Of a DNA stretch of 64,000 nt, positions 13,480 to 21,545 are shown piece after piece. The position numbers were made by a program, and so were the translations under genes. The notes beneath the pieces are model-generated. The model was not told the DNA's origin, made no database searches, and saw only the letters and a program-made list of their open reading frames with translations. Positions within the stretch are counted from its first letter, which is position 1; every line of letters starts with the position of its first letter. Source of the stretch: Planctomycetota bacterium (GTDB lineage Bacteria > Planctomycetota > JAJSAM01 > JAJVHW01); contig CBDFJG010000002.1 in NCBI GenBank assembly GCA_965248445.1, positions 704,001 through 768,000 of the forward strand, written 5' to 3'.

Positions 13480-15021
13480 ATGCGATCGCGTCTGACTCAC
13501 TGGGCGGCCGTGCTGACTGTCGCCGCCGTCACGTCACTGACTCACGCCGACACGCAGCAGTCGGGCGAGATCCCGATGCTGACGCCGACGGCGGGGTTCT
13601 CGGCTACGTCCCTGTTCACCGTCGGTGAGGCCGTCGGCGCCTACCGGCCGCCCGGCATCCTCGACGGGCTGGGAGCGTACGTGCACGACGCGAACACGAT
13701 CCGCGTGCTCGCCAATCACGAGCTGTCCGACGACGACGGATACGCGTACGCGCTCCGAAATGGCACCCAACTCACCGGCGCACGGATCAGCTACTTCGAT
13801 ATCGACCGCCGCACACGGCAGATCTGCGCCGCCGGCCTCGCCTACGGCCGCGTTTACGACCGCAGCGGCAAAGAGGTGACCGCCGCGACGCAGATCAATG
13901 AGGCGAGTCAGACCGGTGACGGCCTGGCCCGCTTCTGCTCCGGCCGCCTCGTGAACGCCGGCGAGCGCGGGTTCGTGGACACCGTGTATTTCGCGGGTGA
14001 AGAGGTCTCCGACTCGTCACACGCACACGGCGGCGGCGAGTGGGCCCTCGATGTCGCGAACGGCGACCTGTGGGCGTGCCCGGAACTCGGACGCGCGAAG
14101 TGGGAGAACGTCGCGCCGCTCGACGCCGGTAGCAGCAAGCACGTCGCTCTGCTGATGTGCGACGACACAGCGGGTGCACCGCTCTTCCTGTGGGTCGGCA
14201 AGAAGTCGAAGAAGGGGAACTTCCTGCAGCGCAACGGGCTCGCCAAGGGCAAGCTGTACGCCTGGATCGCAGACGGGTCGGCGCGCGACGCGGGAGACTT
14301 CAACGGCACAGGCGCGACGCTCGCCGGGTCGTTCGTACGCGTCAAGGCGCGCAACCCGCGTCAGGCGCGCCGTGGCGGGTACGACAACCGCGGATACCTG
14401 GACACCTCCACCCTTCGGCGCGAGGTCGCGAAGCTGCGCGCGTTCGAGTTCGCGCGCCCCGAAGACGTGCACGACAACCCGTTCGACGGCACGCAGGCCG
14501 TGTTCGCGACGACGGGCTCGAGCGACTACCCGGACGACCGGTGGGGCCAGGTGATCCGCGCCGAAGTGGACTTCACCAAGCTGAGGAAGCCGCGTGCGAC
14601 GCTGACGATCCTCTACGACGGCGACGAGTTGCCGGAGCCCGACGAGGGAATCCGAAACCCGGACAACCTGGTCTGGTCCGAGGACGGGTTCATCTACGTG
14701 CAGGAGGACGCGTCGCGGAGCGCGTTCGGGACCGTGTCGGACATCGAGGCATCGGTGTGGGCCCTGGATCCCGTGTTTCGGACCGCAACGCGGATCGCCG
14801 AGATGAACCGGTCCGCCGTACCGTCCGGCCAGACCGACGACGACGCCGGAGAGTTCGGGAACTGGGAGTCGTCCGGCGTGCTCGACGTGACGAGGCTGTT
14901 CGAGACAGTCCCCGGCGAGCGGCTGCTCATGCTCGACGTGCAGGCGCATGGCATCGACCTCGACAGCGCCGACCTCGACCAGGGCGGTCAACTGCTGCTG
15001 CTCTCGATCGGCGCGCCCTGA
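13480..15021 (+). CDS. PhoX-like (DUF839) alkaline phosphatase
   Basis: Signal peptide; DGLGA, NHEL, RFCSG, GEE, LGRAKWEN, FARPED, NPDNL, QED, WESSG, DVQAH. Confidence 0.85.
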   Translation: MRSRLTHWAAVLTVAAVTSLTHADTQQSGEIPMLTPTAGFSATSLFTVGEAVGAYRPPGILDGLGAYVHDANTIRVLANHELSDDDGYAYALRNGTQLTGARISYFDIDRRTRQICAAGLAYGRVYDRSGKEVTAATQINEASQTGDGLARFCSGRLVNAGERGFVDTVYFAGEEVSDSSHAHGGGEWALDVANGDLWACPELGRAKWENVAPLDAGSSKHVALLMCDDTAGAPLFLWVGKKSKKGNFLQRNGLAKGKLYAWIADGSARDAGDFNGTGATLAGSFVRVKARNPRQARRGGYDNRGYLDTSTLRREVAKLRAFEFARPEDVHDNPFDGTQAVFATTGSSDYPDDRWGQVIRAEVDFTKLRKPRATLTILYDGDELPEPDEGIRNPDNLVWSEDGFIYVQEDASRSAFGTVSDIEASVWALDPVFRTATRIAEMNRSAVPSGQTDDDAGEFGNWESSGVLDVTRLFETVPGERLLMLDVQAHGIDLDSADLDQGGQLLLLSIGAP

Positions 15022-15076
15022 CGCGGAGGGGAACCCGATAGCCTCTGCTCCGCGTCGAACGTTGGGAGACCACGGC

Positions 15077-16117
15077 ATGCGGACCTCGACCTGGATCAGT
15101 CTTCTCGCCTGCACCGCGCTCGTCAGCGCACTCCCCCTGGCCTCCGCGCAGGAGAAGCCGGCGCCGCTCTGGCCGCAGGAGGGTTACGGGGCGCTTCGCT
15201 CGGCTGCCGCAAAGGCCAAGACGAGCGGGAGCCGCCTGCTGCTCGGCCTCTCCGGCGGCGACCACTGATGACCCTCGTTCAAGTTCGAGAGCGGTTCGCT
15301 CTCGCCCATGCTCGAGGACGCTCGCGTCGTCAAGGCCGCTGAGCCGTACACGCGCCTGTTGATCCGCGTCCCCGAGGCGTACCTGCTGCTGCAGCATTTC
15401 GAGGACGCCACGCGTCCGGGCCTGTTCGTGCTCGATGCGGACGGCAACCCCGTGGACTCGATCTCGTTCACCGGGCTGAGCGGCGAGGACGGCGCGAAGC
15501 AGATCGCCGAGTGGCTCGACGAGACCCGCGAGACGCCTGCGCTCGCAACCATCCGGCTGAAGATCGAAGCCAAGGACATGGACGTGATTGCGGACGCCGT
15601 CGAGGAACTCGAGGGCGTCGAATGGGCCGCGGAGACGGACGAGTCGTTCGACGTGGCCGTCACCGCCGGCACGGCGACACCCACGCACGTGGTCGCAGCC
15701 GTCAAGAAGGCGGGCGGCAGTGCGACCGTCATCGAGCCCGTCGCGGTCACGTTCACAGCGCGACGCAAGGGCGCCGAGTGGAACGCGGGCGACGTCTCCG
15801 CGCTGCCCGGCGTGCAGGCGGTCACGACCGGCGAGCGGCCGGTCGCCTGGTGCGCGCCGTTCTTGCTCGACGGCAAGGCACTCACCGCGGCAGCGCCCGG
15901 GTGGGTGGCCGACGTCGAGGAGACGGTCCATCGCCTGAAGGACTATCCATCGACACCGAGCGGCGCCCGCGTCGCGCGCTACGCGCTCGCGGTGAACGGC
16001 GTCCTGGCGGTGTTCCCCGACATCGCGAAGAGCAGGATCACGGTCGTTGCGCGCCCCGCCGTCACTAAGAAGAGGGTCGCGGACGCCCTCGTCAGCGCCG
16101 GAGTGAAGCCCAGGTAG
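15077..16117 (+). CDS. exported thioredoxin-fold + HMA-like protein with two consecutive in-frame UGA codons (candidate di-selenocysteine protein, 346 aa)
   Basis: Signal peptide ORF and the 15308 ORF are in frame across TGA TGA (15266-15271); LSGGDH**PS aligns to FTGSDWCxxC; RPGLFVLDADG cis-Pro region. Confidence 0.75.
15286..15304 (+). promoter_or_regulatory. SECIS-like hairpin
   Basis: CGAGAGCG-GTT-CGCTCTCG perfect stem; G-initiated apical loop 22 nt after the second UGA. Confidence 0.65.
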
Positions 16118-16247
16118 CCACGCTCGTTTGCGAGGGACCTGGATCCCGGCGATGCTCGCTCAGGAGCCCGTGCTCGGGCAGTCGGCGCATCGCCAACGGG
16201 TGGCATTCGCGCCTCGGCCGCCCCCTCGGGCCGGGGAGGGAGTTCGG

Positions 16248-17231
16248 ATGCGTACCTACCAAGCGGCGGCGTTCGCCATCATCGCAGGCTGTGCCGTGCT
16301 GTTCGGCGGAGCCACGGAGACCTCACGCGCCTCGACCGGCGACCTGAGCAAGCAGCAGGTCAAGCAGCTCGAGAAGGAGTTCAACCAGATCGTGAAGCAG
16401 CACAAGCAGTCGGGGAACAACAATTTCAAGGTGTTCAAACAGGGCATCGGGAACATCAACAAGGACGTCAAGTCGGGGACTGCGGATCCGTTCCAGATCT
16501 TCTTCGACACGACGAACGACCTGGACTTCATCTTCGACGGCAGCCTGTCGTCCACGCGCAACGCGATCGCGGGGATCGAGGGCGTGTCGTCGAGCTTCTA
16601 CGCCGCGAACACCGGCGTGCCGGACTCGATCCCCGAACTCAGTGGCGCTCCCGGGAGTCTCATCGACGACGCCGTCGGGAGCCTGAACGCAAACAACGGC
16701 AAGCTGCTCACCAAGATCCGCAAGCTCATCTCGAAGCTCGAGAAGGCTGCGTGCAAGGAGGACATTCCGCCCTTCACCGGACTGCGCGGCATCCCGGAGT
16801 TCCAGGCCCCGCACGTGGAGCGCACCGGCTTCTTCGGCAGCGGCATGACCGAGAACCGCGCGAATATCATCTTCACGACCTCCGGTGGGCAGACCTCGAG
16901 CCGCGTTTTCTCCGTGCTGGGCTACTTCGACTTCGATCCCCTCGACAACGACGAGACGTGGACCGGACTGTTCGATCCGGACGGCACCGAGCTCGACAGG
17001 CAAGAGCTGACGCCGTCGACGAACGGGGTGTTCCGCGGAGGCTTCTCCACAAGCAGTTCCGGGACCAAGAACATCGGGGTGGACATCTTCGATCCCGACG
17101 ACGACAGCCTGATCTTCGCGGACGGCTTCGAGTCCGGGGACACCTCGGCCTGGACCAACGAGCAGGGGCCGATCAGACCCGTTCAGGCTCGATCTCGTCC
17201 TGCCCCGTGTGGGCTGCGCAGACTGGGCTAG
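16248..17231 (+). CDS. secreted hypothetical protein with near-terminal IFADGFESGDTSAW motif
   Basis: MRTYQAAAFAII signal peptide, GGAG RBS. Confidence 0.75.
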   Translation: MRTYQAAAFAIIAGCAVLFGGATETSRASTGDLSKQQVKQLEKEFNQIVKQHKQSGNNNFKVFKQGIGNINKDVKSGTADPFQIFFDTTNDLDFIFDGSLSSTRNAIAGIEGVSSSFYAANTGVPDSIPELSGAPGSLIDDAVGSLNANNGKLLTKIRKLISKLEKAACKEDIPPFTGLRGIPEFQAPHVERTGFFGSGMTENRANIIFTTSGGQTSSRVFSVLGYFDFDPLDNDETWTGLFDPDGTELDRQELTPSTNGVFRGGFSTSSSGTKNIGVDIFDPDDDSLIFADGFESGDTSAWTNEQGPIRPVQARSRPAPCGLRRLG

Positions 17232-17298
17232 CATTCTTGGACGAGGAAGGGCCTCCGATCCGGGGACGCACGCTGCGTGGGATAGGGAGGATGGACCG

Positions 17299-18954
17299 AT
17301 GAAGGTCGTCAAGTCGCTCACAGGATTCGTCCTGTCAACCGGGCTCGTGCTGCTGCTGTCTGCGCCGGGCCTCTCGCATGGTGAAGAAGAGCACCGGTGC
17401 ATCGAGGACGCCTCGCTGCATCGACCGGAGGTCGGGGCGCCGCTGCCAGAAGCGGAGGGTGGCGTCGTCGTCAGCATCTCGGAGACCTGCGAGTTCGTGA
17501 AGGTGATCGTTCACGAGGTCAGCAATGAGGTCGCGCTGAACGTGACGCTTCAGCGCGAGGATCAGGTGTTCGAGATGGGCGCCGTGCCCGGGTCCGAGGA
17601 AGGCCCGCGCGTGCTGGTGCGCTACAGCTGCGAAGGCGACACGCTGCCAGGCGAGGTCGAGTCCGTCGAGGCGTTCTTCGGTTTCGCGGTCCTCGTCAAG
17701 AATGCGGAGGGCCAGGTCGTCCTGCGCGGCGAGGTGCCGACCCTCGAGTGCGAAGAAGAAGAAGAGGGCGATGGCGAGGGTGACGGCGAAGGCGACGGCG
17801 AGGATGAAGGTGACGGCGAGCACGAGGAGCCCGAGACCGAGATGGGCCACTTCGAACTCGAGCGCCCCGAAGGCGGACTCGAGCCGGAGGCCAACGGCGG
17901 CATCGCGATCTGGAAGCGCGGCGACCGCGAGAAGTTCGTGCTCGAACTCTGCGGCTTCGAACCGGAGTCCCGCGTCCTGATCTACATCAGCGACGGTGAA
18001 GAGGAGTTCGCCCTGGTAGACGACCTCGGCATCGACGGCGAAGGATGTGCACGCTTCTTCCGCGACACCGGCGAAGAGCAAGAGCTCCCGCTCGGACTGT
18101 CGCTCGAGCAGTTGGAAGAGCGCCGCCTGCAGATCCGTGACGGCGAGGGCAACGTGCTGCTGGTCGGCCGAGTGCCGGAACTCGAGGACGAGAAGCACGA
18201 GGAGACCGAGAAGTCCCGCGGGCCGCTCACGCGTCCGGAGAACGCTCCGAACCGCGAGGCCGAAGGCGCCGTCGGCGTTTGGCGCCGCGGCGAGCGCGAA
18301 AAGTTCGACGTCGAGGTGGGCGGTTTCGCCCCCGAGACGGGACTGCTTCTCTTCATCGCGAACGCCGAGAGCGAGTTCGTCTTGGTGGACGACCTGCGCA
18401 CCGGCGAGCGCGGCGGCGCTGAGATCTTCCGCATGAACTTCGAGGGCGGCGAGTTGCCGCTCGGCGTGGACTCGCTCGATGAACTGGCCGGCCGCGACAT
18501 CCAGATCCGCAATCTGGATGAGCAGGTCGTGCTGGTCGGCGAGGTCCCCGCGTTCCGCGCGGATGACGACGGTGATGTGCGCGAGCGTGAGACCCACCGC
18601 GACGAGGTCACCGGCGCCAAGATCGGAGTGCGGGTGCTCATCAAGGTCTCCAAGGGCCGCGAGAAGCTCTCGTTCGAGATGAAGCACCTGCCCAAGGGCT
18701 TCTCGATCAACAAGCGCCGCCGCGGCGGCAGCAGGGAACAGGTCAGCCTGTTTATCGCGGACGAGCTGGGCACGATGACGGAGGTCGGCAGCACGAGAGT
18801 CCGCCGCCGCCGCACGGCGAAGCTCCGCTGGAACAGCAGGAAGGGCCACACGCTGCCCCTCGGCGTGACATCGATCCGCGACCTCTCGGGTCGCGCATAC
18901 GAAGTGAGAATCGGCGACACCGCCGTTGCCGAGGGGTTCATCCCATTCTTCTAG
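17299..18954 (+). CDS. secreted acidic repeat protein
   Basis: GGAGG RBS, signal peptide, 3-4 repeats of about 100 aa (REKF...LPLG...G.VP), Glu/Gly/Asp low-complexity linker. Confidence 0.85.
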   Translation: MKVVKSLTGFVLSTGLVLLLSAPGLSHGEEEHRCIEDASLHRPEVGAPLPEAEGGVVVSISETCEFVKVIVHEVSNEVALNVTLQREDQVFEMGAVPGSEEGPRVLVRYSCEGDTLPGEVESVEAFFGFAVLVKNAEGQVVLRGEVPTLECEEEEEGDGEGDGEGDGEDEGDGEHEEPETEMGHFELERPEGGLEPEANGGIAIWKRGDREKFVLELCGFEPESRVLIYISDGEEEFALVDDLGIDGEGCARFFRDTGEEQELPLGLSLEQLEERRLQIRDGEGNVLLVGRVPELEDEKHEETEKSRGPLTRPENAPNREAEGAVGVWRRGEREKFDVEVGGFAPETGLLLFIANAESEFVLVDDLRTGERGGAEIFRMNFEGGELPLGVDSLDELAGRDIQIRNLDEQVVLVGEVPAFRADDDGDVRERETHRDEVTGAKIGVRVLIKVSKGREKLSFEMKHLPKGFSINKRRRGGSREQVSLFIADELGTMTEVGSTRVRRRRTAKLRWNSRKGHTLPLGVTSIRDLSGRAYEVRIGDTAVAEGFIPFF

Positions 18955-19196
18955 GCCGCTGTCACGACACGCAACCCGGGCAGGGCGTCAACGGACGCCC
19001 GGCCCGCTCCCATTCCGCGCAGCACGCCCCGGAGACCGGGCCGCGCTGCCGGTGCGCGCGTTGTGCTAGGCTGAGATGCGGGAGGCAACACGCGCGCTCC
19101 ACCGGCGAAGCTGCGCCGGGTTCGGGGAGGCGTGCGGCGTGTTGCGGAAGTGTGCGTCCGCGTTCCGTTGAACAGCGCGGACGGTAGGAGGAAGCG

Positions 19197-21545
19197 ATGC
19201 GCCGAATCTTGATCGCCGGTGTGCTGGGTCTGTCCGCTCTGCTCGGTCTCGAACGCGACGCGTTCGCGTGAGGACCGGTCCCCGCACCACCGTGCTCAGT
19301 GGTGATCTGGTGGACGCCTGTCCTCGCGAAGTCCTTCGTCAACAAGAAGAGCGGCGACCTCACGCTGAAGATCGACTACGCGTCGTTCATCGGGTGGAAC
19401 GAGGTGTGCCCCCTCCCGGACTTCGCAGCGATCCGGGTCAACGTGACGGCGACCCCGGTCGGAGGCGGGACGCCGTTCGTAGTCGGGGAGCAGACGTTCT
19501 CACCCACACCGCCGTCGACGCCGGGTCGCCAGCCCGACGCATCGGTCGACTACGTGATCGCCGCAGGAACGCTCTCGTTCGGGGTGGACTACGTGATCGA
19601 GATCATCGGTACGTGCGAGGTGCGGTTCCCAGGCACCGGCCCGGGGACCGGCCTGTACGCCGACACGGCGACGGTCGAGAGCTGCATCGTGCAGCCGACG
19701 CCGCTGGACGAGAACACGCCCCGCCTGGGCATCTGCTGCCTCACGAAGGAAGACGGGCTGGTGTCGATCGCGGAGCGCGGTGACCAGCGCGCGACGTACT
19801 ACCTCATCAGCAACAACGATCCGAAGCACGCGGTCACCATCGATCTCGGGAGCAGCGGTTTCCAGGTAGCGAATCTGCCGGACGGCTTCTCGGTCGCGGA
19901 CGTCCAGGCCGCGTACGACGCGGGTGCGGCGTCGATCTCGAGTCCGGTCGAGGGCGCCGACACCTTCGTCGGCTTCTTCGAGGGAGACGTCCCGGCAAAC
20001 GGCATCGTGCCGAACCCGGCGGATCCAGGGGCCGTCGATCCGCTCACGATCACGCAGGAGGGCCTCGTCCTCGCACCGTTCGAGTGCCGCATGATCTGCA
20101 TCGTCACCCGCAGCAACGGCATGTGCGCCGACGGCTCGTGCTCTCGACGCAACCTCAAGGTCACCGGTGAGTTCGCAGACGGCTCGTCGGCTCTCGCGTG
20201 CGCGATCTCGGCGCACGCCGTCGAGGCCGGCGCGCCGCGACAGGCGCCGCGCTGCCTCTACACAGACACGATCAAGGTCGGTCCGGACGATCAGGTGCTG
20301 TTCTCCCGGGGTCACTTCGGCAACCGGTCGGGGCCGATCCCGTTCGCCGAGACTCACTTCGGCGGGAACGTCACGCCGGCGTTCCAGCCGTTCCCCGGTG
20401 AAAGCTCCACCGAGCTGCGAGGCGCCAACTTCCCCTCGCCGGAGCCGTTCCCTGATCAGGCGTCGGACACGATCGCCGAGGAGCCGTTCCTGGTGGACTC
20501 GTTCTTCGACATCTCGTACGAGATCGAATTCTTCGGTGGCGGCCTCGTCGGCCCGCCGACGCGAAATCGCACGACGGTCTTTGGGATCGGTCAGCTCCAG
20601 CAGGGCGTGCCGGTCGACGTCCCGGTGGTGCTTGTTCAACCCGCGGTGCCTGTGGGGCCGCAGTTCATCGTCGACTCGTTCTTCGACGTCGGGACGGGCA
20701 ACGTCCTGATCCTCGATGCCAGCACCCCCGAGCCGCAGCAGGTCTACAACGGTCCAATCAGCGAGCTCCAGCAGTTCGCAAACGAGTCTTCGCTGGTCAA
20801 CATCCCGCCCGGCACGTGCCGGACGATCTCGAAGTCCGGCAACACGGCTCAGAAGTACAGCGTGCTCGCGCCACACAACCGCACGTTCGTCCTGGGCAAG
20901 AAGGACCGACCGAGCTTCTTCGACGGAGGCATCCCGGTCGTGAATGGGCAGGACACCCAGCCATCGCCGTGGGACGCCGTTCGTGAGGGGATCGGTGTGC
21001 AGCCGCGGTCCCCGAGCGGCACGGACACAGTTCCGATCGAACTCGTCGCACTCGATCTGCAGAGCGTCGATCCGATCGACGTGGACATCTTCGGCAAGAA
21101 GAACAGGGTGCGGGACTTCCACTCGTGGGTCTGCGTCTCGTGTCCCGGCGGCCTCAACATCGCCGACTCGCCGTTCCTCGTACGCGTCGTGAACCTGCCC
21201 GGTAAGCCGGGCATCAAGAAGGACTTCAAGAAGGCGAAGTCGTTCAAGAAGGTCCCGGTCGGCAACACGACGACCGGCATGATCACACTCCGGAACAAGG
21301 GCAAGGGACCGGTGTCGTTCCGACCGCCGGCCACCCTTCCGGCGCCGTTCAGCTGGGTCAGCGACGTCTCGGGGTTCCACACCGTCTACCCCAAGGGCCA
21401 GCTCCAGCTCGAGATCGCCTACACGCCCGTTGGCGAAGACGGAAAAACCAAGGGCAAGGACAAGGTCACCGCCGAGGTGCTGCGGAGCGACAAGGAGAAG
21501 CCTCTCAAGCTGAAGCTGAAGGGCGACTGGATCGACGCTCCCTAG
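19197..21545 (+). CDS. secreted Cys-rich surface protein with in-frame UGA at codon 25 (candidate selenoprotein, 782 aa), C-terminal Ig-like ASH/choice-of-anchor-D-like domain
   Basis: AGGAGG-5nt-ATG; MRRILIAGVLGLSALLGLERDAFA*GPVPAPPCSVVIWW continues in frame into ORF 19299-21545. Confidence 0.75.
19285..19304 (+). promoter_or_regulatory. SECIS-like hairpin
   Basis: CACCAC-CGTGCTCA-GTGGTG; loop starts 19 nt after UGA with G at the second loop position. Confidence 0.55.

Follow-up and report, generated by a model that had tools for sequence, protein, structure and literature searches.

The window analysed here is a 64,000-nucleotide stretch of contig CBDFJG010000002.1 from a planctomycete genome. 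On its forward strand lies a gene in which two adjacent in-frame TGA codons (the UU site) fall within a predicted thioredoxin-fold domain. The features of the locus are as follows.

15064–15069, + strand: Shine-Dalgarno-like GGGAGA, 7 nt 5' of the ATG (sequence reading)
15077–16117, + strand: complete gene of 346 codons, two of them in-frame TGA (frame and translation)
15077–15148, + strand: probable signal peptide, residues 1–24, with a hydrophobic core and an A-x-A end (hydropathy)
15158–15523, + strand: thioredoxin-fold domain, residues 28–149, Thioredoxin_7/DsbH/DsbD-gamma-like (model and structure match)
15266–15271, + strand: TGA TGA, predicted Sec64-Sec65, occupying CxxC positions one and two (alignment and conservation)
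15273–15317, + strand: predicted bacterial SECIS, conserved upper stem 15286–15304, apex G at 15294
15416–15418, + strand: Pro114, invariant, just before strand beta-3 at the thioredoxin cis-proline position (alignment and model position)
15542–15742, + strand: HMA-like domain 1, about residues 156–222, without CxxC (profile similarity)
15737–15919, + strand: degenerate HMA-like repeat 2, about residues 221–281 (profile and alignment)
15917–16114, + strand: HMA-like domain 3, about residues 281–346 (profile match)

The readthrough frame extends from the ATG at 15077 to a TAG at 16115–16117. Translation confirms the original prediction that codons 64 and 65 of this frame are TGA TGA, placed between a signal-peptide ORF and an ORF of 269 amino acids. 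The latter, starting at 15308, is the downstream portion of the 346-codon gene and the sole part of it present in databases. Leader hydropathy is 1.5–2.3 across about residues 4–24, and homologs have comparable leaders; anchoring as a lipoprotein via Cys12 was considered and dropped, most homologs having no Cys12. No promoter or terminator consensus was found for the gene, and tblastn of the UU protein against its own genome gave no paralog. Upstream in the window (13480–15021) is a PhoX-like exported protein and downstream (16128–21545) are large, exported-looking proteins without a family match. These neighbours are not common to the homologous loci, and comparison of 34 loci over flanks of 1.5–5 kb, some on short contigs, showed no conserved neighbourhood.

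Contigs from four sequencing runs carry identical letters across the TGA-TGA stretch. All four runs derive from one sample, possibly the source of the assembly itself, so the read support sought for the tandem codons is exact but not independent. That shared sample is the point in favour of a pseudogene or an assembly error. Against it, the same two TGA codons recur across 25 genomes and nine metagenome loci that share about 30–80% identity; this conservation refutes the explanation, to which we attach virtually no weight. Two of our tests of conservation do not select on the feature. The first used a profile of the residues that follow the site: among the loci collected at that stage, all related ones that include upstream DNA had UU there, the remaining rows being two that start at the locus edge and two that are weak and unrelated. 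For the second, we searched 401 genomes of the phylum with a domain profile carrying Cys at the site, which matched 40 places. Exactly two TGA were present in 27 of the top 28, from 25 genomes, and the 28th strong match starts at a contig end beyond the site; the 12 weaker places had one TGA or none, and the four of these that were inspected are ordinary UxxC or CxxC thioredoxins. In metagenome contigs an alignment scan recovered 12 loci (nine UU, one cut before the site and two unrelated), and a single-sequence scan recovered nothing. In UU loci both codons are TGA, never TAA or TAG. A set of 37 distinct UU loci was gathered with a pattern requiring UU; the set served to compile codon and hairpin statistics and does not test UU conservation. 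The family is patchy, with none of seven genomes of the host's own family matched, and the site is not found in all homologs: the proteins P0023 and P0026 lack it and keep the rest. The UU gene is real, intact and mis-annotated.

A true double stop, or a stop-start overlap (TG-ATG-A) coupling two genes, would make use of the ATG inside the hexamer and would match the two separate pieces called in databases. However, the ORF opened by the internal ATG is 24 aa long here (median 17 aa over the 37 loci) and has non-coding GC3, and coupling was rejected on these grounds. Moreover, the original frame goes on with coding-like GC3, in-frame restarts lie at scattered positions, and the sequences on either side of the hexamer make up a single thioredoxin domain, which Cys-Cys homologs carry uninterrupted. 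We regard this explanation as highly improbable. The host genome contains 1779 TGATGA hexamers; a GT apex on a stem of at least 6 bp follows at offset 28 or 31 in four of them, and one of those four, the locus at 15266–15271, has long open frames on both sides.

Bacterial selenocysteine insertion needs a hairpin within a limited distance of the UGA. The perfect hairpin claimed for this locus was found as described, an 8-bp stem (arms 15286–15293 and 15297–15304) closed by a GTT loop (15294–15296), with the loop G 25 nt after the first UGA and 22 nt after the second. For both codons it fits the bacterial model given in a recent survey, namely G(U/G) at the start of the loop and a stem of 4–16 bp located 16–37 nt after the UGA (PMC13188914). 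Taken alone, its fold has only a moderate advantage over shuffles (z -1.5 to -2.6), and Rfam held no family for it (best E 1.5). The stem core is at an identical offset in 36 of the 37 UU loci, one of the 36 having been read by eye after the pattern missed it, and is 3 nt later in the other. The apex codon tolerates Gly, Arg, Ser and Val, with T kept at the third position and G nearly always at the second. All 25 apex Gly codons are GGT, whereas the Gly four codons upstream of the site uses GGC in 34 of 36; the Ser preceding the apex is AGC or AGT (30/30) and the Leu following it, in the 3' arm, is CTC (35/36). Across 32 sequences 94% of stem cells pair, compared with 29–59% for slid structures, and two-sided changes occur in 10 stem cells, where shuffles give 2.5; this test is inflated by sequence relatedness. 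Covariation is absent from the four inner stem pairs, which hardly vary and never change on both sides. Nine of 11 Cys-Cys proteins replace the apex-encoded Gly, Arg or Ser with a residue that the apex codon pattern cannot encode, and hence the constraint disappears together with the UGAs. On this codon and pairing evidence the hairpin is constrained at the RNA level.

The original prediction also depended on the host being able to make selenocysteine, and its genome does encode the full machinery: selA, selB, selD and a tRNA-Sec (selC) with a TCA anticodon. The selD gene carries a TGA of its own (C3, about 1081689, - strand), for which our scan found no GU-apex hairpin at the usual range; its SECIS may be of another type. 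A codon-usage scan of the host genome identified 62 TGA sites flanked on both sides by coding-like sequence, many of them at UxxC, CxxU or similar motifs. Among 21 hand-picked single-UGA candidates, 18 have a GU apex, 17 of them at offsets 21–29 counted from the T of the UGA; the corresponding offsets for the UU gene are 28 and 25. Offset 25 is seen in five candidates and offset 28 in three; a scan demanding these offsets supplied three of the eight, so the unbiased counts are four and one, respectively. Besides selD, two of 20 other single-UGA candidates lacked the GU-apex hairpin in our scan. Six of eight candidates checked match known redox families. The host's approximately 20 single-UGA selenoprotein candidates (for example at C1:315009, C1:172965, C1:331183, C3:1771889, C4:454098, C4:548911 and C4:1210341) are mainly exported thioredoxin-like proteins, and include AhpD-like and deiodinase-like proteins and a Cys-Sec protein without a family match. 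Separately, three near-identical coding-like stretches with a TGA between (C1:9086, C2:872616 and C4:899877) have no SECIS-like apex and are probably a repeated element with overlapping genes. Use of Sec is very common in the 401-genome sample of the host's phylum, where the SelB C-terminal domain was found in 283 genomes (71%). A SelB match is present in 24 of the 25 UU genomes and the 25th (G292, 85% complete) carries selA and tRNA-Sec; given this background and the kinship among the genomes, the support from co-occurrence is modest.

Relatives were also sought at the protein level. A profile run against 1.84 billion representatives yielded 265 matches, of which 150 were listed. Among those listed, 113 match solely downstream of the site, nine end at the site and 28 span it; gene callers thus split UU genes, 122 of the 150 covering one side only. 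The 28 spanning proteins comprise 11 with Cys-Cys, two that are site-less and 15 more distant sequences (13 CxxC thioredoxins, one without Cys and one unrelated). Three of the nine that end at the site stop after a single Cys, as a truncated Cys-Sec form would, although they are on contigs of 571–1217 bp and may be cut ends. The check proposed originally was whether homologs carry UU or Cys variants; they do, with UU and a conserved hairpin in genomes and Cys-Cys in protein databases. The Cys-Cys and Cys-stop forms are known only from protein records, one Cys-Cys cluster including an NCBI record from candidate division KSB1 (MCI0691191.1), and no Cys-Cys locus was found in the genome DNA searched. 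A tree of 53 domains, arbitrarily rooted and with weak support on 21 of its 50 inner branches, groups four Cys-Cys proteins as a clade within a supported UU group (97/85). Because this clade is nested among UU sequences, the tree suggests at least one Sec-to-Cys reversion. A DsbH-like thioredoxin, P0129, has a C-C-x-C active site, and a vicinal pair might have arisen from CxxC by way of such a form. Word-indexed searches with the domain profile returned further fragments only, and the ESM Atlas, queried with a Cys-Cys homolog, returned leads under 0.9 only (Trx7/PDZ and redoxin/PDZ clusters).

Considered together, the sequences make it very likely that both UGA codons are decoded as Sec in an exported thioredoxin-fold selenoprotein gene. 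Alternatively, one UGA alone might encode Sec, the other being read by a near-cognate tRNA, being skipped, or mostly causing termination with a mixed product. One-codon skipping at a Sec site has been described in an engineered RF1-less E. coli strain, and the authors term it non-natural (PMC8326192). The literature searched also shows no natural double decoding by one bacterial SECIS. On the other hand, homologs carry two Cys, not one Cys with another residue, and the three proteins that stop after the first Cys do so as expected of Cys-Sec forms. A UGA read as a common residue should moreover revert to a sense codon, but both TGA are retained in all 27 complete genomic matches. Decoding of a single Sec accordingly seems improbable to us. 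For double decoding, the spacing and conservation make it likely that one SECIS serves both codons. A SelB-GTP-Sec-tRNA complex would bind the single in-ORF hairpin at its GU apex, placing Sec at UGA64; the ribosome would then advance one codon with the upper stem still outside it, and a second SelB complex on the same apex would place Sec at UGA65.

The thioredoxin domain was modelled over residues 28–149 with Cys in place of Sec, using 32 sequences (pLDDT 94.5). Structure searches, which included Foldseek, match the model to DsbH, a Bacteroides exported domain and DsbD-gamma at Z 11.0–11.2 (for DsbH 2JU5, Z 11.2 and rmsd 2.5 over 110 aligned residues). In the model the helix after the site is interrupted, unlike that of canonical thioredoxin. 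W32, G57, G60, L75, P99 and P114 are invariant residues of the domain. A profile search reproduces the proposed placement of the first UGA at the attacking Cys of thioredoxins, aligning Sec64 with this residue in DsbH and DsbD and Sec65 with the next, at weak E-values (0.057 and 0.092). Thioredoxin_7 (PF13899) matches 15 of 32 family members at E<=0.1 (best 5.3e-6), and the window protein has no Pfam match. It was also correctly predicted that the thioredoxin domain has no other Cys; in the whole protein Cys occurs only at positions 12 (within the signal peptide) and 259. The U-U-x-S motif, by contrast, does not hold for the family. The fourth, resolving position is Ser in just 21 of the 37 UU loci, with Thr in six and Phe in four; Cys is not among its commonest residues there, and is found at this position in none of the 11 Cys-Cys proteins. 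On the aligned sequences the family motif is instead G-x-x-G-x2-UU.

Three architectures are seen: a signal peptide and Trx(UU) domain followed by HMA-like repeats, as in the window gene; a signal peptide, PDZ and Trx(UU); and a signal peptide with Trx(UU) alone. Assignment of the C-terminal domains to an HMA-like fold rests on sequence profiles. Domain 3 matches the CopA metal-binding domains (profile E 3.4e-4), with Gly/Pro-rich residues in place of the metal-binding CxxC of CopA and CopZ. Domain 1 matches domain 3 (HHalign probability 90, E 1.5e-6) and has weak matches to HMA structures in the PDB. Repeat 2, which is shortened or absent in some homologs, matches domain 1 with probability 89 and domain 3 with probability 0.7. 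PF00403 matches seven of 46 family members. Two genomes, G235 (L041/L061) and G306 (L042/L055), each encode a pair of PDZ-Trx(UU) paralogs separated by about 1.5 kb, and both paralogs keep the TGA-TGA and the hairpin. In another locus (L081/L035, G073:C46) a large internal deletion fuses the start of the Trx domain of a UU gene to its last HMA-like domain; the apex codon is GTT, and this locus is a pseudogene or a misassembly. Finally, L096 (143–1624, - strand, on G245:C51) encodes a 494-aa exported protein with four in-frame TGA, consisting in order of a UxxU HMA domain, a CxxC thioredoxin, a PDZ and a UU domain, with hairpins after the UGAs.

Following export, Sec64 would act as the thioredoxin-type nucleophile and Sec65 would stand in for the missing resolving Cys. 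The site might then cycle between a bis-selenol and a vicinal diselenide, or form a mixed Se-S bond with its target, and the protein would serve as a reductase or isomerase acting on envelope proteins, with the partner chosen by the Cys-less HMA-like domains or, in the sister subfamily, by PDZ. The Cys-Sec tail of animal thioredoxin reductase and the Cys-Cys tail of MerA offer analogies for such a vicinal pair. Vicinal Cys-Cys pairs such as the MerA tail are also metal sites, and both UGAs could encode Sec in a pair that binds a soft metal or metalloid (Cu, Hg or As) and has no catalytic redox role, the HMA-like domains docking metal-handling partners. Consistent with this, HMA-like domains come after the site, one homolog has a UxxU HMA domain as well, and no form has a resolving Cys. 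However, the HMA-like domains have no CxxC, roughly half of the loci carry PDZ or lack any additional domain, recurring neighbour genes were not found, and the first Sec and Pro114 retain the thioredoxin catalytic positions. We therefore hold metal binding to be possible but doubtful and favour, by a judgement only somewhat better than even, a redox centre that uses the adjacent Sec in place of the resolving Cys. For the explanation as a whole, an intact gene with double Sec decoding that yields an exported redox protein, we estimate a probability of roughly 0.75. We lean, again only somewhat more than evenly, towards a single in-ORF SECIS that would be used twice and a vicinal-diselenide Trx-fold enzyme that would replace CxxC and switch in evolution between Sec-Sec, Cys-Sec and Cys-Cys.

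Two adjacent UGAs provide a test of SelB reloading on one element, and the family supplies 37 natural SECIS variants together with Cys-Cys controls for reporter testing. Its small (about 120 aa) soluble domains are suited to the study of a vicinal Se-Se centre in a thioredoxin fold. Catalogues built by homology from known families would miss split UU genes; because callers split these genes and such catalogues miss them, planctomycete selenoproteomes are probably undercounted. If double use of one SECIS and the vicinal diselenide are true, bacteria would offer a natural template for inserting several Sec efficiently, and their thioredoxin superfamily would include a new redox centre.

In the fold comparison, DsbH (2JU5) and the DsbD C-terminal domain (1VRS) are tied, at Z 11.2 and 11.0. 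These proteins and PF13899 have in common with the window family an extracytoplasmic location, the position of the first active residue and that of the conserved Pro, but they have CxxC whereas the window family has UU or CC without a resolving Cys, at 17–22% identity; the window protein adds the HMA-like domains. The latter align with the metal-binding domains of CopA but, unlike PF00403 HMA domains of CopA and CopZ, have no CxxC, and because of this absence they probably do not bind metal alone.

Eukaryotic SECIS elements are located in the 3'-UTR, whereas the hairpin of the window gene is within the ORF at a fixed distance; this sets it apart from the algal protein PDI_e. PDI_e is likewise PDI-like with two consecutive Sec predicted from sequence, and its GUGUU motif makes it, per its authors, the first Sec-Sec selenoprotein, with no bacterial homolog found (PMC7539508). 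The original view that the motif was unknown in a thioredoxin fold must be amended on this account, and it is the bacterial case, with an in-ORF SECIS, that is new. PDI_e is eukaryotic (haptophytes and SAR) and has three Sec in GUGUU, while the window protein has G-x-x-G-x2-UU.

Among bacterial families, NF041199, a Trx7/PDZ domain-containing (seleno)protein with CxxU and one Sec (PMC13188914, Table 1), combines Thioredoxin_7-like, PDZ and Sec as the PDZ subfamily of the UU family does, but in reversed domain order. Its matches to members of that subfamily score 26–40 bits against a cut-off of 300 and cover the PDZ part only, and an NCBIfam search with the window protein found no relevant family and no match to NF041199. 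Two close Sec are known from bacterial UxxU motifs, in a Prx-like thiol:disulfide oxidoreductase and the NF041115 metal-binding protein (PMC13188914, Table 1), and a vicinal pair containing Sec is known from the CU dipeptide of SaoL, SaoC, HgcA, KCU-star and MbdU (PMC13188914; 10.1101/2022.07.06.499078); in the parts of these sources available none is listed as UU, and folds or spacing differ. UU is absent from the motif column of a 2026 list of 119 prokaryotic families, some rows of which give no motif (PMC13188914), and there is no bacterial UU in the available portions of PMC13326102, PMC12013277, PMC2398784, PMC4807772, PMC10778597 and 10.1101/2022.07.06.499078. A report of a bacterial tandem UGA was not found in the literature searched, which includes few subscription journals. 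The gene described here, which appears in no catalogue checked and stands outside the CxxC/UxxC families and NF041199, very probably represents a new bacterial Sec-Sec family that behaves like a bacterial Trx-fold selenoprotein.
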